Origin: Geosiphon pyriformis uo1 | Lineage: Eukaryota; Fungi; Glomeromycota | Assembly: GCA_016748015.1 (NCBI GenBank) | Contig: JAAOMT010000718.1 | Span: 186,001-250,000, forward strand | Length of the DNA stretch: 64,000 bases | Direction: 5' to 3' | Shown here: positions 2,288-57,484 of the stretch, piece by piece | Layout: every line of letters starts with the position of its first letter | Numbering within the stretch: position 1 is the stretch's first letter | The notes under the pieces: generated by a model | What the model was told of the DNA's origin: nothing | Databases searched by the model: none | Seen by the model: the letters and a program-made list of their open reading frames with translations, nothing else | Position numbers and translations under genes: made by a program

Positions 2288-2349
2288 ACAACAAATAGCA
2301 GGTACTTAAGTATATTAACTATCAATTATTAATTAAAGCTCTTAAGTGT

Positions 2350-4048: not shown

Positions 4049-4226
4049 CTATAATATTCAATAATCAATAACTTTTTACTATTAATATAGATTATTTTAA
4101 GTGTTAGATTTAGTTTAAATTTAGTTAATTCTGATAAAATTGCAGTAAAACAAACCAATATTTCTATGACTAAAAATATTATATGATAATATAATATTAC
4201 TTATTCAATAAAATAATTATTAAATA

Positions 4227-4485: not shown

Positions 4486-4619
4486 TTCTATCTGATTAAA
4501 GTTTTAATTGTACTTTTTTTTGTTTTTTGATTGTATTATATCTAATAGTAAAAAACATGCTATTTTTTTAACTTGTATTTCACAAAGTTATAAGAATACT
4601 ATATATTTTATGATAAGTT

Positions 4620-18404: not shown

Positions 18405-18556
18405 GATAAAATTAACTAATTATAAAAAAGGAGAATAAAGAAAATTATTTTTTGAATATGGAGTTTTTATTTGTTTTTGAGTTTGGGTGTTTTTTTTTTT
18501 TGTAATTATTTACTATTTTTTGTCTTTATGTTTTTATTAAAGAATTATTGTAAAAT

Positions 18557-19943: not shown

Positions 19944-20022
19944 TGTTGTTGATTTTATTGTTTGTTCTGCTGTTAAGTTTGTTGGTGTTTTGTTGGTGTT
20001 AATGTTGATATTGATGTTGGTA

Positions 20023-23719: not shown

Positions 23720-23739
23720 TTTGGTGCTTTCTGTGAGGT

Positions 23740-29564: not shown

Positions 29565-29574
29565 TTCCAGACCC

Positions 29575-30942: not shown

Positions 30943-31235
30943 ACAACGGGCAGCAAATTAAATTGGGGAATTCAAATATATATAGCATCCAAAAAGCAGC
31001 AAGAAACAATAGAAATTTCAACATGGACCTTTCAGATCAAATTTTAAAATTATCTAAACAATTATTTGAAACAATTCAAAAATCGACATCTTAAATAGAA
31101 ATAACAATTGATAAAAAAGAGATATGATACAAAGATAAGAGCAGGAGAGGGGAAGACGAAAGTTCAATTAGAACTAAACATTCTCTCCCCTACTCACCAC
31201 CCGAAAGGCAATGTGGAAAGAAAAATTGCTTTTGG

Positions 31236-32217
31236 CATTACCAGATGAAATTAGAGATATTATTTAGCATAAAATTATCTTATAATTCCTATCATTAATT
31301 AGCATATATTATTGTTTCAAATTATCATTTATTATATTAGCAAAAATGTCCAATAATTATCATTTAATTAATAACCCAAATTGTACACAACACAAATGTA
31401 ACCTAATTGTGATGATCAATCATGCAATACCCTGAACTATGTAACATTTAAAAGTTCGCCGAAATTTGTAGAAATTTGCCGAAATAATTGATAGTTCACT
31501 GAAATATCTAATAGTTTGCAGAAATAACTTGTAGTTCACCAAAATGTATCTTTAGTTCAGCGAAATTGTAGAAAATAGCAAAGTTCAAGTTCATAGAATA
31601 GTGTTACAACAAGTTGTATAAAAGAAGAGCTTCTCTCTTCGAGAAAATGTATCTTACTTTAGATTTATCTCTTCAAACCGTTCCTATATACACAAAGAGA
31701 AATAAATATCAAATAATTTGAAAAAACAAAATTCTTTAAACTATTGCACTTGGAAAATCCTCAAAACCCAACTAACGTTTTGAAATTGATTAGCTACCAA
31801 TTTTAGTAAACTGTTAGTGACTCCAGGCCTGGATAGAAAACGTTTTCCTTGATAAAATTTTATTTCTTTTACATTTCTTTTCTTTTTCTTTTCTTTTCTT
31901 ATTATAATCATTAGAGTAGTCTACAGACGAGATTTTTGTAGAAGAGTTGACTTTTACAGCAAAGTAACTACACATTTTTAGTGAGCTTCCAGACGAGCAA
32001 TTCCTGGAAAAGAGTTGACATTTACTACAACGTAACTACATAAAGTAACTGGCACAGAATTGGCCATTCCACTTATAAGCCCAGCAATTCAAATTATAGG
32101 AGATAATTTGAAGATAAATTCAGTTACTAGAGGTTTAACCACATCCAGAAAATGTAAATTCACAGCAAACAGACATTAACAACATTTAAGAAAAGAGACC
32201 AAAAACCTTCGGTAACA
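31236..32217 (+). repeat. 5' LTR of element C
   Basis: Direct repeat of 40131-41107. Similar to the A-family LTR. Confidence 0.95.
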
Positions 32218-35200: not shown

Positions 35201-37881
35201 AACTTTATCACTACTTTTATGATGCTGAGATGATTTTCAACCTAGCAATGGCATTAATTAATGGAGCTACCAAAGAAGATGTTCGCCAAATAAAGGAAGC
35301 AGAATACATTGAATACACCATGGAATTAGCTGGATTCGATTACAAAGACGAAGTAGAAGTCTACCACCAAATTGCAAGTCACACCTACCCAACTCAAGAA
35401 GTTCAAATTCAACAATTAGAGCAAATGAACATTAGGCTATGTAAAAAATACATTATGCCTTGTGATAAACAGTGGTGTCCTGAATGCTACACTTTTAGTA
35501 TCCCCTTGCCCAGCGAAAATGATGAGAACAAAATTGAATTTGAAGAACCTGAAGCAATGGAAGAAATTAAAACAACACCTATTTACCTTATCAAAAATCA
35601 GCCTGCCTTATAACTTAAATACTTCAACAACAACGGACAAGGAATAAAACCCAAAAAAGCACATGAAATTGATGCTGGATATGACCTAAGATATCCAGAC
35701 AAAGATACTCTTGTTCTCAAACCCAAATCTCTCACAAAAATCAACCTCAAAATTGCACTCAAAATCCCACCAGGAGCAATGATTCAAATTACTTCCCGGT
35801 CCTCTCAGACAAGCAAAAGAATTAATGTCAGAGGAAGAATAATCGATGCTGGATATACTGGAGACATTACAGTAATGCTTCAAAATGAAACTGACAAACC
35901 ATTCAAGATCGAACATGCTGAAAAAATTGCCCAAGCTATTTACCTACCCTTAATCAACATTTTGGGTTTGCAACTAGTCAATCAAAGAGAACAATTAGAA
36001 AAAAGCGATAGAGAAACCCAAGGTTTTGGTTCAACTGGATGATTTACAGTTCCAGTTAACATAGCGCTTAATACATGAAACAAATCCCACCAAATTCTCA
36101 GACTTTCACAACCAATTACCATTTCACCCTTTGGAGAACATCTAGAAATCTACACCTGCCCAAAGCCAACAACCATACAACAAATTTTTGAGTCCAATGA
36201 ACAAGTCTGCTTGGAACATAATATTTTGATCCCAAACATTTATATTCCAGAAAGAACAAAGAAAGTCCAAGTTACTTTTTACAACTCCAATAATTACCTT
36301 ATAATTTTATTAAATAATTTAGAAATTGGAGTTATTCACAGTAATATATTTCAACAAGAATTACCCCAAACAGTCCCCGATTTCTCTGAAATTATTGAAC
36401 ATTCAATACCAAAAATCAACCCAAATCTCAGTTCCAAAAACTACCATGTTGTCATGGAAAAACTATTTCGAATCAACATGGGACAACTTGAACCACAACA
36501 ACAGACCCAGCTCAAAGAGCTAATTGCAGAATTTGCCGATATCTTCACTGAAAACAACAATGACTTAGGAAGAACCAATTTGGTCCAACACCAAATTTAT
36601 ACAGGAGATGCCAAACCAAGAAGACAACAAACATATTGAGTTGCTCCAGAAAGCTACCAATTCATCTGAGAAGAAGTACAACAAATGCTTAACAATGGGC
36701 TCATCCAACCCTCCATGAGTCCTTGGGCTTTACCTGTAGTGCTAGTTAAAAAGAAAAATAGAAAGATCTGATTTTGTGTTGACTATTAACAACTCAACAG
36801 TGTTACAATTGGAGACGCCTACCTCTTTCCCTGGATTGATAACATGTTAGATGCCTTTGGAAAATCCAAATACTTTTCAACACTAGATTTAGAAAGTGGT
36901 TACTGGCAAGTTGCTATGGATCCCAAAAATCACCCCAAAACAACATTTACCACCCAAGGCGGAAATTACGAGTTCAATGTAATGCCTTTCGGATTATGCA
37001 ATGCACCAGCAATGTTTCAGAGATTAATGGATGTTGTGTACCAAAGACTTCTTTGGAAGTCAGTAGTCATTTATCTTAATGATACTGATGTTTATTCTCC
37101 ATTGTTCAAATTACACTTAAAACACCTACAAAAAGTTTTTCAACGATTACAAAAAGCAGGATTAAAACTTAATATCAAAAAATGCTACTTTGGAAAAACA
37201 AGCCTGGTCTTTCTTGGTCATATCGTTAGTAAAGATGGAATTAAACCAGATCCTGAAAAAATCAGCGTTGTCAAAAACTTCAAAACTTCTCGAAACACTA
37301 CAAAACTAAGAGGATTCATAGGATTAGCATCCTACTATTGGAAGTTTATCAAAGAATTTTCAGAAATTGCAAAACTCCTCAACCAGCTCACTACCAAAAA
37401 CGTTGAATACAAATGGACTACTGAACACCAAAAAGCTTTTGAAATTCTCAAGAAAAAACTGACAACAGCTCCAATTCTCGCCTACCCAGATTTCAGCAAC
37501 CAATTTTAACTAGCTACAGATGCTTTATATACTGTCTTTGGTGCTATCTTATTACAACTAGACAACAATGGAAATGAGCAAGTAATTGCTTATGCTAGCA
37601 GAACATTAAAACCAGCTGAGAAAAACTATCCTGCCACAGAACTAGAAACAGCAGCTGTAATTTGGGCCCTACACCACTTCAACCTTTATCTCAGACCTAA
37701 AGAATTTGATATTATCACTGATAATATTGGACTCAAATGGCTTCAGAACAAAAATACTTAGCTGAATGCAAAACAAACCTGATAGACAGGATTTCTAGCA
37801 AACTATTAATACATAGTACATCACAAACCAGGAAAACTCCACACCAATATTGACTGTCTCTCCAGAATGAGACAAAATTAA
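32218..37881 (+). pseudogene. Element C ORF1 polyprotein (N-domain-CA-NC-PR-Cys-rich-dUTPase-RT-RNase H), single frame with point stops
   Basis: ORF pieces at 32263, 32794, 34003, 34744, 35095, 35779, 36211 and 36844 all share one frame. CHYCGISGHWKRDC; LILDSGSAGSI; YLND; NIDCLSRMRQN then TAA at 37879-37881. Confidence 0.93.
35640..36042 (+). pseudogene. dut: dUTPase domain of element C
   Basis: All five trimeric dUTPase motifs: DAGYDL, SRSS, IIDAGYTG, KIAQ, RETQGFGSTG. Confidence 0.92.
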
Positions 37882-37933
37882 AAAAACACAAAAACCAACA
37901 CTCAACTTAACCAACCAAAAGAGCCAACAAACA

Positions 37934-39319
37934 ATGAATTCAAAAAACTACAATGATCTCAAACAATATTTGGAAACATTAACAATCCCAACAAATTGGT
38001 CTCCAGATGAAAAACATTGATTACAACAACAAGCCAAACAATATTTTCTACACAACAATATTATTTATTACCGAAATTTCAAAAACCCAGACAAACCACT
38101 CAGATTAATACAAGAACAGGAAAAAGAGACTATATTATACAACATGCACTCAGATTCTTCATCAGCCCACTTCGGAAAAGACAGCACCACCCAAAAAACA
38201 CTAAAATACTACTTTTGGTCTCAAATAAAAAAAGACATTCACAAATATGTCGAATCTTGTGATAGTTGTCAAAGAAGAGAAGGAACTCACCCTACAGAAC
38301 CTTTAAACCCAATCAAAGTTGGACAGCCTTTTGACAGAGTTGGTATCAATTTAGTCAGACCACTATCTATCACAAACCAAGAAAACCGCTACATTGCAGT
38401 AGCTGTAGACTATCTCACCAAATGGCCTGAAGCCAGAACCATTCAATGGGCAGATGCAAAATCAGTAGCAAACTTCATCTATGAAGACATCATTTGTAGA
38501 CATAGATGCCCAATAAAACTTTTATCTGATCAAGGAACACATTTTGTGAACAATTTAATCCAAGAAATTTGTGGATGATTTAATGTCAAGAGACCATTAT
38601 CTTTATCCTACCATCCACAAACAAATGGACTGGTAGAATGGTTCAACAGAACATTGTGTGAATCATTAGCCAAAGTTTCAACCAATTTTGAGCAAGAATG
38701 GGATCTCTTTATTCCATCAGTATTACTAGCATATAGGACACTAAAACAAGATACCACAAAACACACACCATTTGATTTAACTTATGGAAGGATGGCAACA
38801 TTACCAATTAGTTTCACAGTAGAAACATACCCAGCACAACTAATCAATGAAAACAATTTATAAGAAATGCTTCAATGAAGAGCCTACACTCTGCTTAGCA
38901 CATTGGAAGGAAAACGACGAATAGCAGCCACCCATATTGAACACTCTCAAGCTCAACAAAAAGAACGGCATGATGACAAATTGCCTCCAGTCATCAATGA
39001 ATTTAAAATTGGAAACAAAGTTCTCTTACACAGAACTAAAGCTAAAAAACAATGGAGTGAAAAATTTGAGAATAAATAGGATGAACCATTCTTTATTCAT
39101 AAAGTTTTAGACAACGGATCATACAAGCTAAGACTTAATGACAAAATTCTAGCAAAAGTTGCACATAGAGATCATTTGAAACACTATAATTCCAAAAACA
39201 ATCCTGAACTATTAATTCCACGAATTGGTACACATTCCCCTTTAATCAATCCTGAAGACATTCCCCGAAATTTAGAACCAATAGTTGTCATTGAACAGCC
39301 TCCCAACTTGAACACTTAA
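37934..39319 (+). pseudogene. Element C stand-alone integrase ORF
   Basis: Starts MNSKNYNDLKQYL. HSDSSSAH...CDSC, LSDQG, NGLVE, tail PEDIPRNLEPI. Different frame from ORF1. Confidence 0.92.
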
Positions 39320-39443
39320 TTTAAATTTATTATTATTATAGTTATCTTCTTATAATTTAGAAACAATCTCACAAAAACAAAACAAAAATAACATAAAAAC
39401 CCATACACCAAAAATAATTTTTTTTATTTTTAAATTGCTTATA

Positions 39444-40162
39444 ATGACTATTCCTTAAAACATTCAACAATTATCCCAAAACTAATATTAGCTTTAAAAA
39501 CAATACCCGAATTATCTATTACTGTTACTGGAAACCACATTAATTATACCCAAACAGAAGTAGTTACAAATTTAGCCCCAAATTCATGAAAATATCACCC
39601 ATATAAGAAGAACACAAGAAGTTATACTGGAATTTACCTGCCAGAACTTTTAAAACTTGCTTTAAGAGAAAATCTAATGCTCATTCTGATTAGTATTCCA
39701 CCAAATACTACAATTCAACAAAGACTTCAACTGTGTTTCAATAAGGAAAACACTGAATATCCTCCAATCTATAGATATTTTCACATTGGAAAAACACTCT
39801 ACAAATGGAAACTGGAATTTACAATAGCAAATCTCACAAAAGAAGCTATTCAGAAACAACTCCACAACAAATTCAAGACAACAGCTGGATCAACAAACAG
39901 TCACTACAGGCTCAGAGCTGCTTTTAGACTTTATGACCTATTCCACACCTGCGAAAACGTACTACAAAACCCAATTTTTCAATCTTTGAAGATTCAATAC
40001 ATTGGAAAGCTCACAGAACTGAAATTTCAACAATTTTCAGACCAAATTTCTTCAATAATTTTGGATTATTATCTGGAAATGACAAACAGTACTTGGATTT
40101 TGATGGAGCTCAGTCTTGAGGAGGAAGTTATGTTACCAGACAAAATTAGAGATATTATTTAG
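39444..40162 (+). pseudogene. Element C ORF3 (unknown function)
   Basis: MTIP*NIQQLSQ start with an early frameshift. The 39677-40162 part has YFHIGKTL...AAFRLYDLFHTC...YIGKLTELKFQ. Confidence 0.8.
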
Positions 40163-41107
40163 CATAAAATTATCTTATAATTCCTATCATTAATTAGCAT
40201 ATATTATCATTTCAAATTATTACTTATTACATTAGCAAAAATGTCCGAAATTATCATTTAATTAATAACCCAAATTGTACACAACACAAATGTAACCTAA
40301 TTGCGATGATCAATCATGCAATATCCTGAACTATGTAACATTCAAAAGTTTGCCGAAATTTGTAGAAATTTGCCAAAATAATTGATAGTTCACCGAAATA
40401 TTTAATAGTTCACAGAAATAACTTGTAGTTTGCCGAAATGTATTTTTAGTTCAGCAAAATTGTAGAAAATAGCAAAGTTCAAGTTCATAGAATAGTGTTA
40501 CGACAAGTTGTATAAAAGAAGAGCTTCTTTCTTCGAGAAAATGTATCTTATTTTAGATTTATCTCTTCAAACTGTTCCTATATACACAAAGAGAAATAAA
40601 TATCAAATAATTCGAAAAAACAAAATTTTTTAAACTATTGCACTTGGAAAATCCTCAAAACCCAACTAATGTTTTGAAATTAATTAGCTACCAATTTCAG
40701 TAAACTGTTAGTGACTTCAGGTCTGGATAGAAAACGTTTTCCTTGATAAAATTTTATTTCTTTTACATTTCTTTTATTTTTTTTTTCTTTTCTTATTACA
40801 ATCATTAGAGTAGCCTACAGACAAGATTTCTGTAGAAGAGTTGACTTTCACAGCAAAGTACACATTTTTAGTGAGCTTTTAGACAAGCAATTCTTGGAAA
40901 AGAGTTGACGTTTACTACAATGTAACTACATAAAGTAACTGGCATGAAATTGGCTATTCCATTTATAAGCCCAGCAGTTCAAATTATAGGAGATAATTTG
41001 AAGATAAATTCAGTTACTGGAGATTTAACTACATCCAGAAAATGTAAATTCACAGCAAACAGACATTAACAACATTTAAGAAAAGAAACCAAAAACCTCT
41101 GGTAATA
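40131..41107 (+). repeat. 3' LTR of element C
   Basis: TGTTACC...GGTAATA ends, preceded by the PPT. Confidence 0.95.
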
Positions 41108-41647
41108 TCGAGCAGGGGGTGGAAAAGAAGAAGGCAAAGAATGAGAAAAAGGTTACAAAAGAAGATACTTAATTCCCGAGCTCAAAGAAATAAAAGAAGC
41201 TTTAGTTCATGGAACCAAACTCCCCGAAACAGAGGAGTGGACACCTGACAATGCCCAGGAATGGAAAGAAAGACTTCCTTCAGCTTATTGGTTCTACAAA
41301 ATTGGAGAACAGCTTGACTTGAAAACATTATACGAAGACCTCAGCCAGAAAACGTTCAACAAAGAAGCAATACAACAAGTAGAAAAATTCGTAGGAAAAA
41401 ACAACCTGACTCTATATTACAAAGCAGCATACCGACTATATGCTGCCTTCCAACATTGTCCAAACATACTACTAAACAGATCTATGAAAACCATAACGGT
41501 TAACAGTATAGGACGAATAACCAATTAACAGTTCAAAGACCTACAAAAGGCAATATTCAAGGCAACAATCAAACATTACATGAATGAAGCCACAATAACA
41601 GATACATACGGTTTCACAGGAGCTCAATTTTAAAAAGAGAGGGATAA

Positions 41648-42719
41648 TGTTACCTGAATAGAAAAACTGATTCAAAGTTATAAAGAAACATGACCAAAAC
41701 GTGACATAACACAGAATAACATGCAATAATATTGGATAACGTGTTATAACACAGGATAATACAGAATAGTGTACAATAACATAGGATAATGTATTATAAT
41801 ACAGGATAACACAGAATAACATGTAATAACGTCAGATAATGTGTTATAACATAGGATAACTAGCAATAACGTAGAAAAATGAAGCAATAACAGAAACAAC
41901 AAAGCAATAGCTAGCAATAGCGAGACAATTGAAAGCAATCCTGTAAAACCAAAAAAATGTATAAAAGCAAGTAGTTGTAGAAGTGAGAAAAAACAGAGAA
42001 GAAAAAATAGATACAAACCTCTAGACCAGAAATTAAAATATCCATACCTCTTCATCCTTTATTATCTTTCCTATTTCATTTCCTGAAATAAACCAATTAT
42101 TAAAAGAAATCAAAATCACGAATTTATGTTCTTGAACTTTGTGGAATTTACGTGAATTAACTCTTGTTTCATATCTTTGTTTTAGAACAGATGCTCTTAA
42201 CATAACTGCCTCGAATCTATTAACGATTTGGACCAATTGCTCTTGATCATGGCAATTGATAATATTAATTTATCTTTTCTCTCTTTTCTTTTTTTTTCTT
42301 TTTCTTTTTCTTTTTTTTTCTGTCTTATTTTTTGTGGAGTGGCAACATAGTAAAATCGACTGTCTAAGAATAGACTTTGTGATAGTCTGATAAAAGAGGG
42401 AAGCTCTTCCTAAGTTTTGGATATTAACATTATCTTGTTAGCTTACCAGAAGGGCAAAAAGACAATGCCAGACTCTAATAACTGCACTCGTTAGCTTGGA
42501 GAAGAAAGCTCACATTTACGAAAAACGTTGTAATCGACAAAAAACAAACTCTATGTCTTATAACCAAAGAATTCAATGGGTAAAATTCACATCCAAGAAT
42601 AGACCTTCAAAGACTGATAATCAAGACTAAGCTAACAGAATTACGTGGAAGATGCATCATTAATAATTGAAAGCACCAAACGTTACCATTTTCCATACCC
42701 ACCAAGTTTATCTATAACA
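41648..42719 (+). repeat. 3' LTR of element B
   Basis: TGTTACC...ATAACA ends, preceded by the PPT. Confidence 0.95.
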
Positions 42720-45272
42720 GTGGACATCTTTTTGGGTGGCTCCATTGATCAATGCCATTGCTAGATCAAAAATCATTTCAGCATCATAAGGGTAGTGGTA
42801 AAGTTTATTGAAAGCACTGTTGTATGCTGCATCAAATGGTATTCCTCTTCTGACTTTTTCTGAAATTGATAGAGCATATTGACAGGTTTGATTACATACT
42901 CCTCCTCTTATTGCTACATCAATCTAATTGCATTCTTCTGGTAGCATTTCTCCACAAGTAAGGCAAGAAGTTTTGTCCCATTTTCCACTTTTCTTTGGGG
43001 ATCCAAATCGTTCTCTATGGCATGCCTTGCAGAAATAGCAAGTGTGAGTTTCATATTCCTCTTTTGGGGAAATACAGGCTTCCATAGATGAAAGCTTCTT
43101 TTTACAATCTTTGCATTTTAATGGAATGTATGGTGGTTTTTTTTGTAATTCTGGTATAGAATACTGAACCTTCTTCCATCCTCTTGTTTCTCAAAAATTT
43201 CTTGTTCTGTTTCTTCAGTCCAATTGAATGTTGATTCAAGAGTCATGTAAGTTTCAGTAATTGGCATTTCCTTCTCTTTTTCAAATTCAAATACTGGAGC
43301 TTTTTTTGATCATTTGTTAAAGGTACCACAGGTTGCAGATACTATGGTATATTGTCTTTAGTATTGGGGTGCATCCATAATAAGAACTTTAACTAGAATG
43401 GTAATTCCATTAATTGTAAAGAAAAAATCATTAATTTCTCCTACTGGGATCTTCTTTATATCATCAGCTATGACAATAACTGTTTGAGCTGGTCTGTCTA
43501 CATTTCATTTGAGTTGTTGCATCAGCTAGTAAGTGATGATACTTCTAGCAGATGCACTATTTAGGATTAAGCAAATAGATTTTCCTTTTATTGTAGCTTC
43601 TATGTACATAGCAGTAATTGCTTTCTGTTCATTAACTGCTACATTATTCAGCAAGAATGATAATTCATTTGCCTCAAATTCAAATGGAAATATATCTGAC
43701 AAATTGGTGTTTTGGGCAATTTGGATGGAATAGTGTGGTTGGAAGGGTTTGATCTGGATGTTGCAATTTCATCTTTAGAAAGTACAGGTTGTTGAAAATC
43801 CGATTCCTCTGGTATTATAAAATAACTGAGTTGAGTGTGATAGTGATTGGGTCTTTGCTGACCAGAATTTTGGGGAACCAACTGGTTATTTGGATTAATT
43901 TTGTTGTTGTTATTCTAAAATTGATTTTGGGATGTGAATTGGTTATGTTGAACCAATCTTCTTGCTGGTACTTAATATTGTTAAGTGAGTGGTGTTTGAT
44001 ATTGCTGAATTGGTAAAGGTTGCTGATATTGTTGTTGAATTGGTTGTGGAGCTGGTTGATAATAGCTGTTTTGAATTTGTGGTCTCAGTGAATAATAAGT
44101 TGATGGTGGGAGTTGGTAATAAGATTGTTGTGGTAAAGAATAACATTGATTACTCCTGTTTTGTTGGTCTCTTTGTAGTTTCTTGCAATCTTGTTTCCAG
44201 TGTCCTGGAATTCCACAATAGTGACAATTTTAAGGTTGGTTGTTGGATGGTGGTCCAAAGTTGTTTTGGTTGTGTTGCTGTGGTGGTTAATATTTTTGTG
44301 GTTGTTGCTGCTGTTGTTACTGGTTTGTAAAATAGCTTTCAACCTTCTTTGTGAGTTGGTTTATCTTTTCTTCAGCTGCTGAGCTAGTTTCTTCAATAGC
44401 CAAGTTAACAAGTTTGGTGTGGTTTGCTTCTTCCATAGCTATTTCATAATTCTTTGCATGTCTAATGGCAGCTAAGTCTGCTGGAGCATGTAGACAGACT
44501 TTCTTAATCAGTTTGTCTTTTAACTCTGCTATAAATTGATCCAGAATTTGAGCATTGGAATAGTAGTCATTGGTTTCCAATTGTTGAATTCATTTGAGAA
44601 GTTTGTTGAATCTTCCAAGATAGGTCATAACAGTTTCAGATGTTTCTTGCTTAATATTGCGAAAGCAGTTTTTGAGAGTAATAGAAGTGTTGTTGTCAGT
44701 GAATTGTTGTAGAAAAGCATCTTTGAATGCTTGCCAGTTTTCAAATGGTTTTTCTAAGTTTTCGAACCATTCTCCTGCAGTTTTTTGGAGAAAGTATGGA
44801 ATTGCTTTAAGCATTCTTGCTGCATTCCAACCATTTGCATCTTGTGCTTTTTGAACTTTGTTAAGCCATTTTTGAGGACTGGTATCATTATTTTCACCTG
44901 TAAATTCTGGAATCTTTGCAATGTAAGCAGTTGCTATTTTTTCTTCATTTTCTGTGGCTTTTTCTTGTTTTGATTCAGTTTCTTCACTTTCCAAATTTTC
45001 TGAATGATCACTTTCATTTTTCTGCAAGTATTCAATAATATTGGTACTTGTTAATATGGGTTCCTGCTGTTGAATAGGATTTCTAGGTGACTGAAAATCT
45101 TTTGGTCTGGAGAAATGGTTAAGTGGTAAATTTGGTGTTTGTGATTGAGCAAGTAAAATTGAAAATGGTGTAATAAAAAGTGGTAATTTGACATTGGTTC
45201 CCTGTTCAAGTGTTTGCAAGTGTTTGGCAGTTGTCTTTGATAGTATTGGAGTGTTTGGAGTGGTTTTTGTGT
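42720..45272 (-). pseudogene. Element A ORF1 middle part: capsid, CCHC nucleocapsid, aspartic protease, Cys-rich domain
   Basis: AYIAKIPEFTGE...WFENL...QILDQFIAELK (capsid), CHYCGIPGHWKQDC knuckle, LILNSASARSI (degenerate DSG protease motif). Confidence 0.9.
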
Positions 45273-46245
45273 TGTTACCAGTAGAATTTTAGCTATTAAT
45301 TAGCATGAAATTACTTTTATAATTCCTATAATTAATTAGTATATTAATATCATTTCAAATTATTATTTATTATTTAATCAATTATTACATATTACGATTC
45401 AATTAAAAGAATCTAATTAGTATAACAGAAAGTAGAATGATCAAATTACACAATACTTTGAACTTTGTAATATTCTAAAATTCACCGAAATTTACAGAAA
45501 TTTGCCGAAATTATGAATAGTTCACCCAAATTAATCAATAGTTCAGCAAAATAACTTGTAGTTCATCAAAATGTATCTTTAGTTTGCCAAAATTTGAGCA
45601 AAAAAAAAAAGTGCAAGTTTATAGACTAGTACTACAACAAGTTGTATAAAAGAAGAGCTTTTCTTTTCAAAAAAATGTATCTTACTTTAGATTTATTACT
45701 TAGAACCATTTCTATACACACAAAAAGAAATAAATATCAAATAAATTTGAAAAACCAAATTCTTTAATTATTGTACTTGGAAAATTCCCAAAACTCAACT
45801 AACATTTTGAAATTGATTAGCTACCAATTTCAGTAAACTATTAGTAACTCCAGGTCTGAATAGAAAACGTTTCCCTTGATAAAATTTCATTTTTTTTACA
45901 TTTTTTTATTTTTCTTTTATTTTCTTATTACAATTATTAAGGTAGCCTACAAACAAGATTCCTGTAGAAGAGTTGACTTTCACAGCAAAGTAACTACACA
46001 TTTTTTAGTGAGCTTCCAGATGAGCAATTCCTGAGAAAAAGTTGACGTTTCTTACAACGTAACTATACAAAGTAACTGGCACGGAATTAGCCATTTCACT
46101 TATAAGCCCAGCAGTTCAAATTATAGAAGATAATTTGAAAAGGAAATTCAGTTACTGAAGGTTCAACCACATCTAGAAAACGTGAATTCACAACAAACAG
46201 GTATTAACAATATTACAGAAAAGAGACTAAAAACCTCCAGTAACA
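45273..46245 (+). repeat. Solo LTR of the A family inserted antisense into element A; TSD GTGT/GCAT
   Basis: Similar to the reverse complement of 56345-57350. Removing it restores VKQHA|KTTPNTP. Confidence 0.92.
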
Positions 46246-46697
46246 GCATGTTGTTTCACTTTTTGTTTGCCTTTGTTGTCTGTTTCTGTTTCTGATTCAA
46301 AGTCAAAAGAGTATTTAGATTGTACTGGGTATTTTTCTTCACAATACTTGATAATGTTGTAATTAAGTTCTTGAAAGTAGGTGGTATTACAGTTTAAGAA
46401 TTTAGCAAAAAGAATCATAAAAATAATACAAACTATTCAATCATAATATAGCACAGTAATAATCTTAGAAAGGTAATGATTAACATAGTAGCAAACACCA
46501 TCTCGCAATAGTGGCAAGCACCAGTTCACAATAGCAGCCAACACCAATTGGTGATAGCAGCAAACACCAGGTTGAAATATCAAAAAGAAAGTATTTTCTC
46601 GTAGAACTACAAACATGTATATATACAGTAGTTTTAATATTGGGAAATAATCAATCAAGTAATAAAAATCATAACTTATCAAGCAATAGATCTAATT

Positions 46698-47004
46698 NNN
46701 NNNNNNNNNNNNNNNNNNNNNNNNNNNNNNNNNNNNNNNNNNNNNNNNNNNNNNNNNNNNNNNNNNNNNNNNNNNNNNNNNNNNNNNNNNNNNNNNNNNN
46801 NNNNNNNNNNNNNNNNNNNNNNNNNNNNNNNNNNNNNNNNNNNNNNNNNNNNNNNNNNNNNNNNNNNNNNNNNNNNNNNNNNNNNNNNNNNNNNNNNNNN
46901 NNNNNNNNNNNNNNNNNNNNNNNNNNNNNNNNNNNNNNNNNNNNNNNNNNNNNNNNNNNNNNNNNNNNNNNNNNNNNNNNNNNNNNNNNNNNNNNNNNNN
47001 NNNN
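46698..47004. other. Assembly gap (307 N); the true gap is larger
   Basis: Only 313 bp of the 866-bp D LTR precede the gap and coding sequence resumes after it, so more than 550 bp (rest of LTR, PBS) are missing. Confidence 0.95.
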
Positions 47005-49404
47005 GCTGTGCTATTTACACACAAAATCAAAGTGATCTTGGATTACCAGAAGGGTGTTGTCCAGCAGAATCTGCCCTCACTTATTATATCAACGCCAGAA
47101 TAAATTATCATATAGGAAAGGAAGAAGAACCACACGACGCAAAACTTGGATTGTATAGAGAATTATCACAATACACTACAAAAGAAGTAGCAGTAATAGC
47201 CGCAACTATTGTCAAAATCCATCAAGAAATTGAGCAATATGCCAACAAAAATTTTCTAATATCCACAGGAAACACTAGGGAACGTGCCAACAAAACCAAA
47301 GAAAATTTAGAAACTAATCAGGAAAGTAACCAGCAAAAACTAGGAACACCAGCTCAAACACCAAAGAAAACTGTCACTCAATCAATAAAGAAACAATGTA
47401 TTTATTCACCAGAAGATAAATCATACCATTTTTCACTAGAAAATAAGATACAAATTCCATTAGGAGCTGCATCATCATCAACATCAACTCCACAAACGCC
47501 AAGAACTCCTAGTTATATTGATAAAATTAAACAACGTAACTGGGGAGACATACCAATTACAGGAGGATATTCATCACTATTCTAAAACCCTCTTTTTCAG
47601 CCAAAATTTAGAACGGAGTTTGAAAACCAAGAAGAGAAGTCTGAATCAGAATCCGAAAAAGAGACCAGTGAAAAAACAATCACAAGACCAGTCACTGGAA
47701 CAAGCAGCCAGTCTAGAAACCAAGAAACTCATGATCAAGAGGAAGAACCAGATATAAGGGAAGCCACCTTTAGGAACGCTCAAGGAAATATCATCCCACC
47801 TTCTCTTAGACCAATAAACCCACCAGCAGAAAACGGCAATGAAATGACCACACCATACATTGCAAGACTAACAGATTTCTCAGGAGAGAAAGAAGAAACG
47901 GACGTGCACACATGGCTCAGAGAAGCACAAAAAGCCATTCAGGCAAATAACTGGAAGGACCAAAGAGCAATTCAAACATTACTTTTCTTCCTGAAAGGCA
48001 CAGCCGACTCGTGGTATCAAAGTCTGGAAACAAAACCCACGAGCTTCGCCGAATTTAAAAATGCACTCCTGGAGTATTTTAGCGACCCAAACGCCATAAT
48101 CCAACTACAGAATGAATTCAATACTATCAAGCAAAATACTGGTGAAACTGTCATCCAATACCTTGCTCAATTCAATCGAATTTGCCATCAGATTGAAGCG
48201 ATTGAACAAGGATACTACACTGATCCTCAGATTTTAAATCAGTTTATTAGAGGATTAAAAAGCAGTATTTTAGGAAGAGTACGCCCTGCCCACCCTAATT
48301 CCTTACCAGAAGCCGTTACGCTCGCCAGAGCCCTTGAATTGGCTAAGAAAGAAGCTAACCATAGTCAAATGGTTAACATGGTAATGGAGGAAAATAAGAC
48401 AGAAACATTAGAGAAAAGAGTAATACGATTAGGGGAGGAACTCTCTAAGAAAATAGAAAGTTATCTCATCTCGGATCTGAGAAAAAATACATACCAACCA
48501 CCCCAAAGACACAGCCAGGAAGTCAGCGACAGTTGAAATAATCGCTCATCGTGCCAGGAATTCAGAACAGAAACATGCGCCTGCCATTTTTGCAAACGCA
48601 TAGGACATTTGATTAGTCAATGTCAAACGCGAATGATGCAGAAAGCATGCAAAAATAATTACTACGCGCCACCCCAAATGTCCAGAAACCAGTACATGCC
48701 AATACCACGCCAATATCCCACCACGTATCAAAATCAAGGAGCTTACCAGCAACAGCCTATGATAGCCAACCCGAATTGGCATTCTGAAGCCCGAAATCAG
48801 CCCATGTGGAACCAGAACACGTTGGTCCAGAGGAATCCAAACCGCGCCGGAACCAATCAGCAAACCAATCCAAACTACCAAAATTATCAACAAACTTACC
48901 TTAATATACTGGAAAACCTGATCATCGGAAACAATGACGGTAGAAACATAAACAGAACCAAAAATTCCTCCAAATTGAGCCAGACAATACCACCAGCAGT
49001 TGCCACCGAAGATAGCAGCCTCACAGCTATTTTTCCTTTTGAATTAGAGGAAAACGAGGCTATGTTCAGTGGAGCAGCATTGGACGAAAAATGCCCAATC
49101 ACTGCTATGTATACGGAAGCCACTGTAAACAATACCCCAATCAAACTTATCTTAGACAGCGGATCCGCTGGAAGCATCGTAACGCTTTAACTAGTAAACC
49201 AACTGGGTTTCAAAGTTGATCGTGCCGCGACGTCCCAAATCATAACAGCCGATGGAAGTACAAAGCTGCTTCATGGCAAAATCGACTCATTCCCTTTCGA
49301 AATTAACGGCATAGTAATACCTACAAAAGTATTAGTAATGGACGTTACACAATATCAAGCGTTAGTAGGGAATGACTGGCTAACAAAAGCCAATGCCACC
49401 CTAG

Positions 49405-50050
49405 ACTGGACCACCCAAGAGCTTCTGATCAATTATAATGGCCACCAGGCCAAAATTCCAGCCACCTGTGGCCACTTCCAAAAACCCAGTGCCAACCAAA
49501 AACCTACCTTCAAATTTGAGGAAAATCCAGCACTACCAGCCATCGAAACCTATCAGCTCTCTTGGGCTGATGACCAAAGAACAGGACTACTAGCCGTACC
49601 AACGTGGACCAGCGAAGAAAGATCCGAATAGAACCAGGTAAGTTCACGAAGAAACCACCAGCGACGCAGACCAAAGCTAGAATGCTCGGTTTGCAAGAAG
49701 AAACTCTCATCTATGACNNNNNNNNNNNNNNNNNNNNACTGGACCACCCAAGAGCTTCTGATCAATTATAATGGCCACCAGGCCAAAATTCCAGCCACCT
49801 GTGGCCACTTCCAAAAACCCAGTGCCAACCAAAAACCTACCTTCAAATTTGAGGAAAATCCAGCACTACCAGCCATCGAAACCTATCAGCTCTCTTGGGC
49901 TGATGACCAAAGAACAGGACTACTAGCCGTACCAACGTGGACCAGCGAAGAAAGATCCGAATAGAACCAGGTAAGTTCACGAAGAAACCACCAGCGACGC
50001 AGACCAAAGCTAGAATGCTCGGTTTGCAAGAAGAAACTCTCATCTATGAC
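49405..50050. other. 20-N gap (49718-49737) flanked by an exact 313-bp duplication; unmerged contig overlap
   Basis: 49405-49717 is identical to 49738-50050. Confidence 0.9.
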
Positions 50051-50779
50051 TGCATGCAGCGCACCAGACAAAGACCCAAGAAACCCCACCCACTACTATT
50101 GTAACCGTTGTAACAAAGAAAAATACGGTTATCCAGAAAGACACGGAAAATGGGACGAGGAACCGTGCCTCGCTTGTGGAGAACCATTACCAAGAGGGTG
50201 CGACTGGAATGACTTACCAGGCAGAGAAAGAACGTGTGACGCAACTTGCCAATACACGATCCTCATCTGTGACTGGGTAAGAGGAGGAACGCTGTTTGAA
50301 GCAGCGTTCAACAGAGCGTTAAAAAGACTACAGCACTACCCACACGACAAGGACGAGTTGTATAACACCGCACAAGCCAAAGTAAGAGGAGGAACTGCTG
50401 AAGAAATACGACGTTGGAAAGAGTCAGCCGAAGTAGCCGACGAAGTTGCCAGTTACAACATGTTCGACTCAGTGGACGAATTCCAGGACTACTACTAACA
50501 ACTATGCCCCACTCGACAAGAGCAAGAACAATACCTCGCCCAAATCAACACTTACCTCTGCAAAAACTGTCTCATCCCGTGCCAAAGTCAGTGCTGTGAA
50601 GAGTGTCAAGACGAAAGGGACTTAGAAAGAAAAATGGAAATTGAGAATCAGCAGTCTCAAAATCAATCAATAAATCAACAAGACTTACCTGACGGTCCCA
50701 AGTCAGAAAAATTTGTAGCCTATACTGACCTAGAACAGGTGACCAACATCCGATACTTCGACAACGGGCACTTAGGAAT

Positions 50780-51175
50780 AATACCCGAAAGAGCCCATCC
50801 AACTGACGCTGGATTTGATCTACGTTATCCAGAAGACCAATCCACAACGTTACCACCCAGAAGCATCACCAAAATCGACCTAAAAATAGTGGTTGAAATT
50901 CCGCCAGGAATAATGGTTCAAATGGTGTCGTGATCAAGCCTCATGAAAAAAGGAATAAGCGTTCAAGGAGGAGTAATTGACTCCGGATACACTGGAAATT
51001 TGATGGTTTTGCTACAGAACAATTCGGAAAAGCCTTATACCATTGAATCTAAGGAAAAGATTGCACAAGCAATTTTCCTACCATTGGTAAAAATTGGGAA
51101 ATTCGTGTCAGTAGAAAATCGTGAGGAATTGTCACAAACAACGAGAGGAACTTTTGGTTTTGGATCGACAGGAAA
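50780..51175 (+). pseudogene. dut: dUTPase domain of element D
   Basis: DAGFDL, S*(R)SS, GGVIDSGYTG, KIAQ, RGTFGFGSTG. Confidence 0.92.
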
Positions 51176-53035
51176 AGGAATTGAAGCGAATTTTGCTGAA
51201 ACAATAGAGGAAAAAGACGAAGTAATTAAAAATGAGCAGTCCATCATGCTCCTACCATATGGAAAATCAGAAATAAGAATAAAAAAGACAATTAAAGAAA
51301 AAGACCTAATATTTGAGCCCTACCCAGAAACTTGCCAACAGTTTCTCATAGGACTTACTAACCTTTTTATTCCAGCTGATAAAGCTCAATGGATAAAAAT
51401 TCCTATCGCAAACACCACAGAAGAACCCGTCTATATTCCGGAAGATACCATCATTGGATACCTTGGAACGGAGCTAGAAAACGCGTCAATACCACAAGAA
51501 ATTCTAAATTTCCCAGAAATTGCCCTCTACTGTGAACTCACTTCAATAAATTGGCAACAATTGGTAGAATGCTATCAATTTACGCCAGAAGAATTGGCCA
51601 AATTAAACATTGGAACAATGGATCCTGACCAACAGCGACAATTAAAAGCATTAATTTTAAAATACTCTGATATATTTTCAAGAAATGGCGAATTTGGAAG
51701 AACCAACTTGGTTTAACACCAAATTCCCACTGGAGACGCCAGACCTGAAAAACAACACGCTTACCGTGTCCCACCAATGGAGCATAATTTTATCAGAGAA
51801 GAAGTCCAAAGCATGTTAGAAAAAGGAATAATACAACCATCAATGAGCCCATGGTCCTCACCAGTTGTTTTAGTAAGGAAAAAGAACGGAAAAATTAGAT
51901 TTTGCGTCGACTATCGCAAACTAAACAGCAAAACAACCAAAGACTCATACCCAATACCATTAATTGACGAAATTTTCGACGTTTTTGGAGGAGCAAAATG
52001 GTTTTCTACACTGGACTTGACCAGTGAGTACTGGCAAGTGGAAATGGACCCAAAGAACAGGCATAAAACAGCATTCACAACACAAAATAGCAATTATGAG
52101 TTCAATATAATGCCATTTGGATTAACAAATGCTCCCGCGACATTCCAAAGACTAATGGACGTAATTTACTCCGGAATCCTGTGGCAATCCGTTGTTGTCT
52201 ACTTGAATGATACAAATGTTTTCTCGTCAAAATTCACGGATCATCTCCAACATTTACAACAAGTTTTTGAGAGATTGAGACATGCTGGACTTAAACTAAA
52301 TCTAGAAAAATGTTTCTTTGGGAAAAATGAGCTAGCATTTTTAGGACACGTAGTTGAAAAAGATGGAATAAAACCAGATCCATCAAAAATAGACAAAGTG
52401 AAAAATTTTCTAGTACCTCAAAACATTTCAGAAGTTAGAAGCTTTTTAGGACTCACATCTTACTACTGCCGCTTTGTAAAAAACTTTTCAAACATTGCCA
52501 AACCCCTTAATTACCTACTATCTAAAAATGTGAAGTTTGAATGGACTAAAGCACAACAAAAAGCTTTTAAGTACCTTAGACAAAAGCTCATTGAATCACC
52601 AATAATGATCTATCCGAATTTCAACAAGAAATTTATTTTGGCCACAGATGCCTCTGGAACTAGACTTAGAGCCATTCTGTTACAAAAAGATGATAATGGA
52701 AGAGAACGTGTAATCACTTATGCCAGCAGAAGTCTCAGTACGGCAGAACAAAACTATGCAGCACATGAACTTGAATGCTTAGCAGTAGTCTGGAGTTGTG
52801 TTCACTTTGACACATATTTACAGTACCAACCCTTTGAGATTACGACAGATCATAGAGGTCTGGTCTGGTTAAATAACAAGAAAGCGCTAAAAGGAAAATA
52901 CGCCAGATGGTCACAAACGTTAGCACCATACGATTATATTATCAATTACAAAAAAGGTACCAAAAATGCTAATGCCGACTGTTTGTCAAGAATGAGACAC
53001 ACATAAAAATCACCAACCCATCCGCCACAACAACA

Positions 53036-54415
53036 ATGAACAACCACCTTTACAAAAACCTCAGCCAATACTTGAAAACACTACAAATAGACAAAGAAAT
53101 GCCAGTAAAAGAGCTAATTAAGCTCCAAAAATTAGCAAAACACTATTTCATCCAAAATCACATACTTTATTACCGGAATCGACAAAATCCAGATAATCCA
53201 TTAAGAGTTATAACCACGGATGAAAAAGAAACTATCTTATTTAACATGCACTCAGATATTCATTCAGGCCACTTTGGAAAAACAGCAACCATCCAACGTG
53301 CAACTAGCCGTTACTATTGGCCAAAAATGAGCTCAGACATAATCCAATACATAAGAAATTGTGACCCATGCCAATGAAGAGGAGGAGCAAAAACAATGGA
53401 ATTATTAAGACCAATAAAAGTTGGACAGCCATTTGACAGAATCGGAATTGATTTAGTTGGACCCTTACCAATAACAACAAGAAACAACTGTTATATTGCA
53501 GTAGCCATGGACTATCTCACCAAATGGCCAGAAGCTAGAGCTATTAAAACAGTTGATGCTATTTCCGTAGCTCAATTCGTACATAAAGACTTAATTTGTC
53601 AACATGGATGTCCACAAGAATTGCTATCAGATCAAGGCACACACTTCGTAAACAGCACTTTAAAAGAACTTAGCCAAAAATTTGGAATCAAGCGACCACT
53701 GTCATCACCATACCACCCTCAAACAAATGGATTAGTTGAAAGATTTAATCGCACATTATGCGAATCACTGGCGAAAATTAGTAATGAACATGAAAAAGAA
53801 TGGGATTTGTTCATACCAGCAGTACTATTAGCATATAGAACAGTAAAACAAGATACTACACAATTCATACCATTTGAACTAGTTTATGGAAGAAAAGCCA
53901 CATTACCCGTTGAACTTACTATCCCAACTTATCCGAGTAACACTATCACGGAAGCAACATTCCAGGAAACACTACTTAGAAGAACATACAAATTAATGGG
54001 AACTTTAGAAAACAAAAGAAGAAAAGCAGCACAAAATATTGAACAATCACAAGAACAACAAAAAGTGAGACATGATAACCAGTTACCAGATAATATAATT
54101 AGCTACAAAATTGGAGATAAAGTATTGTTGCATCATACAAAAATGGAAAAACAGTGGAGTAGAAAATTTGATCACAAGTGGGATGAACCATTTTATATTC
54201 ACAAAATACTTGGAAATGGAGCATACAAGCTAAGACTAGATGATAAAATATTAAGAAAAGCAGCACATGGTAACCGGCTGAAATTCTATTACAGTAAACC
54301 AGTAATAACAACAAAAACACCCAGAATTGGTACACAATTACCTTTAATTCTACCAGAACAAATTCCACGAGATTTAGAACCAATAGTTTTAATTGAACAT
54401 TATTCGAAAAGATAA
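53036..54415 (+). pseudogene. Element D stand-alone integrase ORF (one CGA>TGA stop at 53375)
   Basis: Starts MNNHLYKNLSQYL. HSDIHSGH...CDPC; GIDLVGP, LSDQG, NGLVERFN (D,D35E); GPF-type domain; no chromodomain. Confidence 0.95.
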
Positions 54416-54499
54416 TTAATCTTAGATCACAGCAAAAATGATTTAACAACCATAAAAACGCATGCAAAAGATTCCAAAATAACAGTCAAAATTAAAACA

Positions 54500-55168
54500 A
54501 TGATACTTATTCCAGAAAACATCAACAATATAACTCAACAATTAGTTGAAAGCTTACAACAATTAAAATCCAATCTAGAAATCACAGTTAATAGCTCCAA
54601 AATAACATACATAAAAAGAACAATAGAAAATCCAAAAACAAGAAAAGAACATAATTTCGAACCATATAATATTGCCAAATATAACACCAAATTTATTAGC
54701 AAAGTTATTGAAAAATTAGAGATAGCATTGGGCAATACATTAATAATGGAAGAAATAGAAATAAGTGAATTAACACCAGACATATTTAGCAACTTGAAAA
54801 CGAAATTCCCAATTAATTACTGTTATTATCAACTAGGAAAGCACTTGAACATACAAACATTATACTCAAAAGACTCAACTAGAGTGTTTGACAAAACAAC
54901 TATCCAACTATTAGAACCTTTCATTGGAAAAACCAACACTACATTCCATTCAAAAACAGTTTACAGAATTTTCAAAGCATTTGAAAACTGTCACAAATTA
55001 TTGTTGGACCCAACCATGAACATAATAACAACCAACAGTATTGGACGACTTACCAACTCGCAATTTCAAGAATTACAACAACAAATTAATAACACAGTAT
55101 TGAACCACTATAGTAACTTAGAATTTAATGAAGAAATTAACTTCAATTTCGACGGAGCTCAATCTTAA
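54500..55168 (+). CDS. Element D ORF3, intact 222-aa protein of unknown function in the env position
   Basis: Uninterrupted ATG-to-TAA frame between integrase and PPT. Homologues occupy the same position in A, B and C. Confidence 0.85.
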   Translation: MILIPENINNITQQLVESLQQLKSNLEITVNSSKITYIKRTIENPKTRKEHNFEPYNIAKYNTKFISKVIEKLEIALGNTLIMEEIEISELTPDIFSNLKTKFPINYCYYQLGKHLNIQTLYSKDSTRVFDKTTIQLLEPFIGKTNTTFHSKTVYRIFKAFENCHKLLLDPTMNIITTNSIGRLTNSQFQELQQQINNTVLNHYSNLEFNEEINFNFDGAQS

Positions 55169-55181
55169 AAGGAGGGGATAA

Positions 55182-56047
55182 TGTTACAGTTTAAGAATTT
55201 AGCAAAAAGAATCATAAAAATAATACAAACTATTCAATCATAATATAGCACAGTAATAATCTTAGAAAGATAATGATTAACATAGTAGCAAACACCATCT
55301 CGTGATAGTGGCAAGCACCAGTTCACAATAGCAGCCAACACCAACTGGTGATAGCAGCAAACACCAGGTTGAAATATCAAAAAGAAAGTATTTTCTCATA
55401 GAACTACAAACATGTATATATACAGTAGTTTTAATATTGGGAAATAATCAATCAAGTAATAAAAATCATAACTTATCAAGCAATAGATCCAATTTTATTC
55501 AACAAACTCCACTTTAAATCATACTTTCAAATTAAATATCCCAAAAAACCTTTAAAATCAAAAAGAAATGAAAAAGAATATTTAAAACTGAACTATCACA
55601 ACCCAAAGTATTAAGAAACTTACTTGTATTATTTATTGAATGAAACTATCATTCATCAACTGAATCCCTTGGAAGAATAATCCTTGATCAAGATTATTCA
55701 CGTTGTTACTAATTGATAAAAGCTTTATTGTGAGAATTAGAAAAGCGCTAAAGACCATTAACATTCTGTGTTTCTAGATTAGAGAAACACATCAGGCAAT
55801 TGCAAGGATAGCCTCAGAGAAGACCCCAGACAGTGGGTAGATTTCAGTTCAGCCTCTGAGAAGGAGTACATAAACACACACAACAATCAAGAATTAAAGA
55901 ATAACTTACACCGCAACAGTAAAAAGAAAGCCTTCAGTGTAACAGTGATATTATCACACAAATAGAACTGAGGAACTCACGAAAGACTGATTGCAATTAA
56001 AGCGGGATATCAGCAATTAAATATAACAAGAAAACCATTCCATAACA
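55182..56047 (+). repeat. 3' LTR of element D (866 bp) with 4 x 23-bp tandem units at 55283-55374
   Basis: TGTTAC...ATAACA ends. The first 313 bp differ from 46385-46697 at 7 positions by my count, all transitions. Confidence 0.95.
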
Positions 56048-56344
56048 GTGGCAAGTGTTTCACTGTTAAGGTCTTCAGTTCCCAATTGTAAATAATGTAC
56101 TAGATTATTGTAGAGGTTGCTTTTTACTTTTAAAATGTTGTAATTTCTAAGAAGATAATTATTGATATGGTTTTCAATATATTGATAGAATGTTCTTTCA
56201 ACAATTTCAATTCCATCTGGGATGTTGAATCTTTGCTTGCAATGGGTGTAAATTGACTGATAATACTCTAGAGTTGTTGTGTCTGGTGTGGTTGCCACTT
56301 TGAAGTTTGTTGTTGCTGTGTTATTTCCATAGGAAAGCACCAAA

Positions 56345-57350
56345 TGTTACCAGAGGTTTTTGGTCTCTTTTCTTGAATGTTGTAAATATTTGTTGGTTGC
56401 AAATTCACGTTTTCTAGAAGTAGTTGAACCTCCAATAACTGAATTTATCTTCAAATTATAGAAGATAATTTGAACTTGCTGGGCTTATAAATGGAATGGC
56501 CAATTCCTTGTCAGTTACTTTATGTAGTTACGTTGTAGTAAATGTCAACTCTTTCCCAGAAATTGCTTGTTTAGAAGCTCACTAAAAATGTGTAGTTACT
56601 TTGCTGTGAAAGTCAACTCTTCTACAGGAATCTTATCTGTAGACTACCTTAATAATTGTAATAAGAAAAAAAAAAAAAAATAAAAGAAATGTAAAAGAAA
56701 TAGGATTTTATCAAGGGAAACGTTTTCTATCCAAGCCTGGAGTCACTAATAGTTTACTGAAATTGGTAGCTAATTAATTTCAGGGGTTTTTGGGATTTTC
56801 CAAGTGCAATAATTAAAGAATTTGGTTTTTTGAATTATTTGATTTTTTTATTTTTTCTTGTGTATATAAAAATGGTTCTAAGTAATAAATCTAAAGTAAG
56901 ATACATTTTCTTAAAGAGAAAAGCTTTTTTTATATACAACTTGTTGTAGTACTAGTCTATGAACTTGCACTTTTTCTTTTTGCTCAAATTTTGGCAAACT
57001 AAAGATACATTTTGATGAACTACAAGTTATTTTTGCTGAACTCTTGATTAATTTGTATGAACTATTCATAATTTCAGTGAATTTCTGTAAATTTTGGTGA
57101 ATTTCTTATAAATTTTGGTGAATTTCTGTAAATTTCAGTGAATTTTAGAATGTTACAAAGTTCAGAGTATTGTGTAATTTGATCATCCTACTTTCTGTTA
57201 TACTAATTAGATTATTTTAATTGAATCGTGATATGTGATAATTGATTAAATAATAAATGATAATTTGAAATGATATTAATATACTAATTAATTATAGGAA
57301 TTATAAGGGTAATTTCATGCTAATTAATAGCTAAAATTCTACTGGTAACA
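56345..57350 (-). repeat. 5' LTR of element A
   Basis: TGTTACC...GGTAACA ends, adjacent to the PBS. Paired with 16704-17719. Confidence 0.95.
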
Positions 57351-57484
57351 GTGGGTGCAGTGAGTTTTGATACTTTTATTATTTCAAAAATAGAGAAAAC
57401 ATTGAGAAATCTTTCAGTTACAGTTATGAGCCTTTCAGCTAAAATGAAAAATAATGGTTCTGTTTCTACTATTTGTTCTTTTCA

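Follow-up and report, generated by a model that had tools for sequence, protein, structure and literature searches.

Background

In textbook long terminal repeat (LTR) retrotransposons and retroviruses the integrase (IN) enters the particle by virtue of its fusion to Gag-Pol. Elements of the Ty3/gypsy type (Metaviridae, e.g. yeast Ty3) are bounded by LTRs, carry a TGG-starting type of primer-binding site (PBS) and a polypurine tract, and encode capsid, CCHC zinc knuckle, protease, reverse transcriptase (RT), RNase H and IN in that order, with IN usually, though not universally, forming the C-terminal end of Pol. Here we describe a window of 64,000 nucleotides from the glomeromycote fungus Geosiphon pyriformis uo1 (assembly GCA_016748015.1, contig JAAOMT010000718.1, positions 186,001 to 250,000 of the forward strand), four LTR elements of which, designated A, C, D and B+E, display the same features and domain order but differ in that IN is encoded by a separate open reading frame (ORF). 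Our analysis centers on element D (46385-56047 of the window, plus strand).

Architecture of element D

Element D is a Ty3/gypsy LTR retrotransposon, now dead, and the best PDB match of its RT is the Ty3 RT (4OL8, E 1e-92). Its 5' LTR (46385..46697) is truncated by an assembly gap at 46698-47004, and the 311 nt that can be compared are 98% alike to the 3' LTR (55182..56047; TGTTAC...ATAACA); the element is flanked by the 4-bp target site duplication (TSD) GTGG (46381..46384, with the right copy at 56048-56051). ORF1 (47007..53006) encodes in a single frame an N-terminal domain (N-domain; 47007..47330, end approximate), a Ty3-type capsid domain (47859..48341; PF19259, E 1.6e-15; PF03732, E 4.6e-14), a CCHC zinc knuckle found by pattern match (48582..48623), an aspartic protease (approximately 49100..49430, with LDSG at 49152), a Cys-rich domain of ~210 residues that is conserved in A, C, D and B+E (50010..50630), a dUTPase lying between protease and RT (50778..51173; PF00692, E 2e-17), and RT followed by RNase H (51873..52931), with the RT active site decayed to YLND. 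Pfam recovers the order capsid, protease, dUTPase, RT and RNase H, with IN in its own ORF. Eight internal stops interrupt ORF1, one of them within an assembly artefact, namely a 313-nt repeat at 100% identity (49405-49717/49738-50050, spanning 49405..50050) around a 20-N gap at 49718; the start codon is hidden by the gap at 46698-47004.

ORF1 terminates at a conserved TAA, which with a 29-nt A/C-rich, AUG-free spacer occupies 53004..53035 and leads into the stand-alone IN ORF (53036..54415), coding for an H2C2 region, a DDE core and a GPY/F-like SH3 domain without a chromodomain, and carrying one decay stop at 53375. ORF3 (54500..55168, 222 residues) is predicted to be all-helical and belongs to no known family; its end overlaps the GGAGCTCA motif and polypurine tract (55154..55181) common to all four window elements and the related locus L012. 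Gene callers join ORF3 to a coding-like frame within the 3' LTR (55790-56047). As a first-pass annotation had proposed for D (47007-53006) and C (32218-37881), frames and Pfam matches confirm that gag through RNase H occupies one frame in both, followed by separate IN and ORF3; in C this frame is interrupted only by 20 scattered in-frame stops. The extension of this plan to A and B holds for the shared stop, the IN ATG and ORF3, but A has one frame change near 28190. At C 32218-32330, A 23720-23800 and E 56344-56250, ORF1 lacks a conserved in-frame ATG past the primer site. Judging from these reading frames, gag translation may start within the LTR or at a non-AUG codon.

A programmed break between RNase H and integrase

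In all four window copies (A, B, C and D), whose RT-RNase H proteins are only 55-72% identical to one another, the TAA lies four codons past the 'LSR' of RNase H, and IN begins at its own ATG 10 (A), 79 (B), 52 (C) or 29 (D) nt after that stop. When the polyproteins are aligned, seven internal columns have stops common to two copies, and the terminal column alone has a stop in all four. Copies of the D family are very numerous in the DNA run X1, 304 contigs of which cover the junction: variants of the TAA all stand below 1% and no indel is listed, and the internal D stops at 49962 and 50931 are TGG and CGA, respectively, in most of the family depth of the same run. The break is programmed.

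The same break is seen in close relatives from metagenomic loci (denoted L; related proteins are denoted P): in each of the eight with an unbroken RT-RNase H reaching IN, the latter is a separate ORF. Their spacers measure 63, -1, 62, 30, 727, 110, -8 and 14 nt, and as they place IN in all three frames relative to RNase H, a single recoding event is excluded. At all 12 junctions (four window copies and eight relatives) the IN methionine stands exactly five residues ahead of a conserved tyrosine. L012 has a TAATG overlap (-1) and L041 an overlap of -8, and L011 and L016 contain additional in-frame stops inside the spacer. An AUG on or shortly past the stop, with none between, characterizes 11 of the 12 junctions, the exception being L037. 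The nine spacers of 10-110 nt contain no ATG against 3.4 expected (P 0.025; L037 excluded) and are poor in G (37/449 nt, 8%, versus 17% upstream); those of B, D, L011 and L038 are also more weakly folded than every upstream window of equal length. An identical 13-nt motif occurs beside hairpin-like repeats in the spacers of L014 (4488) and L037 (7045).

Expression of the integrase: competing explanations

The TAATG and -8 overlaps, together with the nine AUG-free, G-poor short spacers, favor termination after RNase H followed by restart at the next AUG, an explanation for IN synthesis to which we assign about an even chance. One genomic RNA would yield the Gag-protease-Cys-rich-dUTPase-RT-RNase H polyprotein, to be cut by the protease, and a minority of ribosomes would go on scanning through the spacer, which is short, poor in G and weakly folded, and would start anew, so that little IN is made. 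As such an IN would not be carried in Gag-Pol, it would have to bind RNA, capsid or the cDNA itself in order to get to the cDNA. SART1 and RNA viruses reinitiate at a UAAUG overlap (PMC10275272; this and all papers below are cited from partial texts). Several observations nevertheless weigh against reinitiation. The L037 spacer is 727 nt long with 12 ATGs, and once it is counted the AUG depletion vanishes (P 0.33); nor is the depletion significant in the spacers preceding ORF3 (P 0.10-0.15). TGGGA, the core of the calicivirus TURBS (termination upstream ribosome-binding site), is absent within 120 nt upstream of the stop at all 12 junctions, though other elements of this kind may be present. 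Moreover, restart after an ORF of 2,000 codons normally requires a cis-element or a viral helper (PMC10275272).

The main rival is production of IN, and ORF3, from subgenomic mRNAs through splicing or an internal promoter, in the manner of env-like ORF3s and foamy virus pol, which we regard as a tentative but real possibility. It would accommodate the long, ATG-rich L037 spacer and the long AUG-containing spacers ahead of extra ORFs in L012 and L038; furthermore, ORF3s of LTR elements typically derive from spliced messages (PMC5408684), an AG is available in seven of the nine short spacers or just upstream at the RNase H end, and the host readily splices these elements, at least in antisense (see below). 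However, it leaves the overlaps of L012 and L041 and the G-poor, AUG-free spacers unexplained, the D spacer has no AG, and no plus-strand GT..AG joint occurs among the 15 listed of 26 joints or in the data for the junction, the cover of IN by the RNA-like runs being very thin. If instead the spacer served for internal ribosome entry or as a cap-independent enhancer, acting as an unstructured A/C-rich leader, IN would be translated independently of the upstream ORF; weak folding of the B, D, L011 and L038 spacers, CAA-rich runs ahead of the ATG and the exact 13-nt motif of L014 and L037 speak for this, but neither the window nor the L037 spacer has an Rfam match, and where the spacer measures only -8 to 14 nt there is no space outside coding sequence; we deem it distinctly unlikely. 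That a fused Pol-IN is still made by frameshifting or readthrough, or that the break reflects only the decay of dead copies, might be suspected from the heavily mutated state of every window copy and from the frameshifts and TGA-CTA stops elsewhere in lineage members. This possibility is largely refuted, and we consider it highly improbable, given the identical stop in four divergent copies, its fixation in the D family and presence in intact relatives, the use of all three frame phases, the further in-frame stops in L011 and L016 spacers, and the invariant methionine.

Phylogenetic spread of the split integrase

Among the 120 best longer protein relatives of the window RT-RNase H, 53 group with the window copies. 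None of these 53 has an IN domain: 38, including P0071 of Rhizophagus clarus, stop at most 28 residues past RNase H and 15 have a non-IN tail of 74-363 residues. A subgroup comprising P0057, P0105, P0084, P0059, L014 and L037 has tails of 200-580 residues of no known family past RNase H. Of 89 fetched loci, 15 fall in the window group (L064 is too short for the tree). Beyond the eight with separate IN, the group loci include L013, which is broken yet split, and seven without an IN match, of which six end soon past RT-RNase H and L022 has a long tail. IN is fused in 42 other loci among the 89, and nine outside the group with broken RNase H/IN frames (L020, L024, L058, L075, L078, L079 and L084-L086) were set aside because the breaks lie at unrelated places and the fixed methionine is absent.

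In a FastTree analysis 72 of 195 rows form one group without fused IN (support 0.98). Against this simple picture, IQ-TREE runs on subsets place the IN-fused L039 and P0107 within the group or at its base, and the group reaches an SH-aLRT of 94 only with both included (45 rows); a single origin of the IN split with later re-fusions is allowed by these trees. The four window copies constitute a firm subfamily (support 99). The named references in the trees come from the PDB only, and in a tree without a named chromovirus reference set D falls outside the branch with the plant and ascomycete proteins P0047 and P0090. No close relative of the element was found among the viral contigs searched.

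Based on these comparisons the IN split is lineage-wide and the gag-pol fusion a subfamily trait. By Pfam lists gag is fused to protease-RT in 18 of the 53 lineage proteins; L012 and L016, with IN separate, have a -1 frameshift with TTTAAA sites upstream, and L037, L041 and L032 have in-frame TGA stops upstream of RT. The earlier suggestion that expression control has moved from the gag/pol boundary to the RNase H/IN boundary is contradicted by the frameshifts of L012 and L016 and the upstream in-frame stops of L037 and L041. The TGA stops lie between gag, protease and RT (L037:3358-3363; L041:481 and 1585; L032:864 and 2373), several being followed by CTA. In L032, L037 and L041 these TGA(-CTA) stops are possible readthrough sites, two per element in L032 and L041. 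The dUTPase, which the first-pass annotation had treated as a lineage marker, is confined to four of the 53 proteins and is known in other fungal and rotifer elements. P0127 has a NUDIX domain upstream of its protease. The comparisons do support, as that annotation had surmised, a radiated lineage with a stand-alone IN and an ORF3.

ORF3, the Cys-rich domain and the N-domain

Each of the four window elements has an ORF3 that ends at the polypurine tract, with the C-terminal motif directly before that tract, as also in L012. The N-domain, Cys-rich domain and ORF3, already recognized as unexplained on first inspection, match nothing in Pfam at the curated cut-off. All three diverge by codon position in the order 3rd > 1st > 2nd, like RT and IN; between C and B+E the differences at second versus third positions number 33 versus 75 in the Cys-rich domain, 8 versus 27 in the N-domain, 29 versus 94 in RT and 11 versus 40 in ORF3. 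The codon-position bias of the N-domain is likewise evident between C and E. This pattern indicates that the Cys-rich domain and the N-domain evolved as proteins. Profiles of both built from three copies picked up nothing related in the fetched proteins and loci, the extent of that search, which was not database-wide.

A search of proteins of 122-389 residues with D ORF3 recovered eight matches, all from Geosiphon pyriformis, the best at 96%. As no hydrophobic or membrane segment is present in six ORF3s (maximal 19-residue hydropathy 0.41-1.28), ORF3 is not an Env; this, and the separation of the window RT from caulimovirid-like contigs, leave the retrovirus- or pararetrovirus-like status initially suggested for the element unsupported. 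The last ORFs of L012, L014 and L037 belong to one family (37 proteins) and show Y-x-x-G and R-x-Y-x-x-F motifs and a helix pattern similar to those of the window ORF3. Their homology to it is unproven: hhalign gives weak E values of 0.03-0.19, and hidden Markov model searches with ORF3 between window and relatives yield no match, both of which weigh against a lineage-wide ORF3. In L012 an extra ORF of coiled-coil-like character (7458-8258) separates IN from the last ORF, giving four or five cistrons.

AlphaFold models of ORF3 from L012 (pLDDT 82) and D (pLDDT 67) are helical. They found nothing in the PDB by Foldseek (L012 model only), in BFVD or in a broad VIA search (best Z scores of 4.4 and 3.6), negatives that do not establish a new fold, the L012 core having barely been probed. 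An ESM Atlas match of 0.76 for D ORF3 was dismissed as chance, as were matches of 0.92 for L014 (a closterovirus coat protein, 138/256), which have few features in common. We predict that ORF3 is a soluble helical accessory protein; as a guess, it could be a nucleic-acid-binding helper in IN expression or delivery.

Nested insertions, target sites and decay

The window elements have TG...CA LTR ends, a polypurine tract and target duplications, with the PBS-like TGG present in A, C and B+E and masked by the gap in D. Element C (31236..41107, plus strand, TSD TTGG/TCGA) lies inside ORF3 of A (22628..42719, plus strand, TSD GCAG/GTGG), which in turn lies inside B+E (16704..57350, minus strand, TSD GCGG/GTGG), the outermost element, whose 5' part also contains D along with a C/B+E-family solo LTR (45273..46245, plus strand, TSD GTGT/GCAT). 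B and E had at first been taken as separate; as their pieces are collinear with C (base 3 to 9872) across every insertion and their LTRs are 94% alike, they are two halves of one minus-strand element. The proposed LTR types (A/C, B, D and E) likewise required rearrangement: there are indeed four families, but A and C are unrelated, with only ~50 nt alignable, and B+E joins C and the solo LTR (78-94%), leaving A, D and a fourth family (709-1563, 3060-3869 and 57715-58552), with a D-like N-domain following one of its copies. Decayed LINE-like elements occupy 57400-63000 (plus), 7000-13000 (minus) and 15400-16700 (plus), comprising a weak RVT_1 match (E 1e-4), an older copy and an ORF1-like stretch.

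Seven of the eight LTR-bounded insertions having two flanks show 4-bp target duplications: GTGG/GTGG (46381/56048), TTGG/TCGA (31232/41108), GTGT/GCAT (45269/46246), GCGG/GTGG (16700/57351), GCAG/GTGG (22624/42720), CTGT/CTGT (57711/58553) and ACAT/ACAT (3056/3870). The eighth, an LTR at 2350-4048, has no matching TSD. The center is CG, TG or CA in all seven (background 14-16%), and in four of the seven the two sides are mismatched in the way expected from a deaminated CG (P about 5e-5 at 3.5% CG); in this small one-window sample the duplications are centered on CG or its decay products. Insertion of this kind would direct new copies to older elements that contain CG, a preference that would explain the nested stack, and methylation-driven C-to-T decay would then kill the inserted copies. 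Consistent with such decay, transitions account for nearly all differences between paired LTRs (107/109 in A), and there is a depletion of CpG, with observed/expected ratios of 0.65 for D and 0.27 for C; transposable elements are CG-methylated in R. irregularis (bioRxiv 10.1101/2021.03.30.436303). LTR divergence is no clock here: the LTRs of A, nested and hence younger, are 88% alike, whereas those of its host B+E are 94% alike.

Contigs of X2 and X3, RNA-like runs of uncertain kind from two studies, skip stretches with CT..AC ends, which those of DNA run X1 do not. Both runs share five of these joints, four of them within ORF1 and the fifth in the LTR, and X3 alone has one more; read on the minus strand they are GT..AG, four having GTAAG or GTGTAAG donors. 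The spliced antisense RNAs cover 49841..51543, 52865..53021 and 55709..55911 of D-family copies (minus strand, GT-AG introns). The joined exons, taken from the window copy, have no ORF above 100 codons, and these RNAs are likely to be non-coding transcripts that could feed silencing.

Significance

In the literature surveyed, which was seen in partial texts and has subscription papers, supplements, Repbase and GyDB outside its scope, we found no LTR element whose IN is encoded in a downstream gene of its own. The CG-centered 4-bp duplications in seven of eight insertions and the spliced antisense RNAs are also new here. A large, evidently successful lineage with separate IN must solve expression and delivery of that enzyme otherwise, making integrase packaging and eukaryotic reinitiation past very long ORFs directly testable; its polyproteins without IN may be mis-called non-autonomous. 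As LTR elements make up 41.2% of the G. pyriformis genome (PMC11952901) and the D family is so abundant, the lineage may shape symbiont genomes, and a CG-centered target would tie insertion to host methylation. More speculatively, it could be an undescribed major branch of the Metaviridae, dominant in arbuscular-mycorrhizal-type fungi, with a true polycistronic RNA, ORF3 or the Cys-rich domain as a reinitiation or packaging factor for free IN, and an IN that targets (methylated) CpG, driving nested expansion that forms much of the Geosiphon genome; as a whole we consider this scenario rather unlikely.

Comparison with known systems

Chromoviruses have a chromodomain at the IN C-terminus, and D IN lacks PF00385. 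The dUTPase lies between protease and RT, as here, in fungal and rotifer gypsy elements (PMC2864245, PMC6431247, PMC5408684), namely PosPlaTy3-5 and those of Phanerochaete, Tuber and bdelloid rotifers; the partial descriptions compared do not mention a separate IN. The rotifer elements also bear non-Env ORF3s, and the PosPla elements are discussed among chromoviruses, unlike the chromodomain-less D. In SART1, caliciviruses, influenza B and hypovirus CHV1 a downstream AUG lies on or near the upstream stop, and L012 has the same UAAUG. This comparison is mechanistic only: the stop-restart of SART1 and the viruses needs defined RNA elements, none of which was found at the junctions here, with spacers of up to 110 nt and once 727 nt.

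The polyprotein of Caulimoviridae, viruses with a movement protein, likewise ends at RNase H, and their polycistronic RNA is translated by reinitiation with a viral transactivator (PMC10275272). However, Caulimoviridae are without LTRs and IN (PMC2774666), both of which the window elements have, and the window RT is about 29% identical to that of caulimovirid-like contigs and does not group with them in trees. The third ORF of errantiviruses and Retroviridae encodes an Env that has a signal peptide and a membrane anchor, in contrast to the window ORF3s, which have no hydrophobic segment. Gmr1-type gypsy elements also show an unusual placement of IN (PMC2774666), but there it precedes RT inside Pol, and L053, which has that order, branches far from D.

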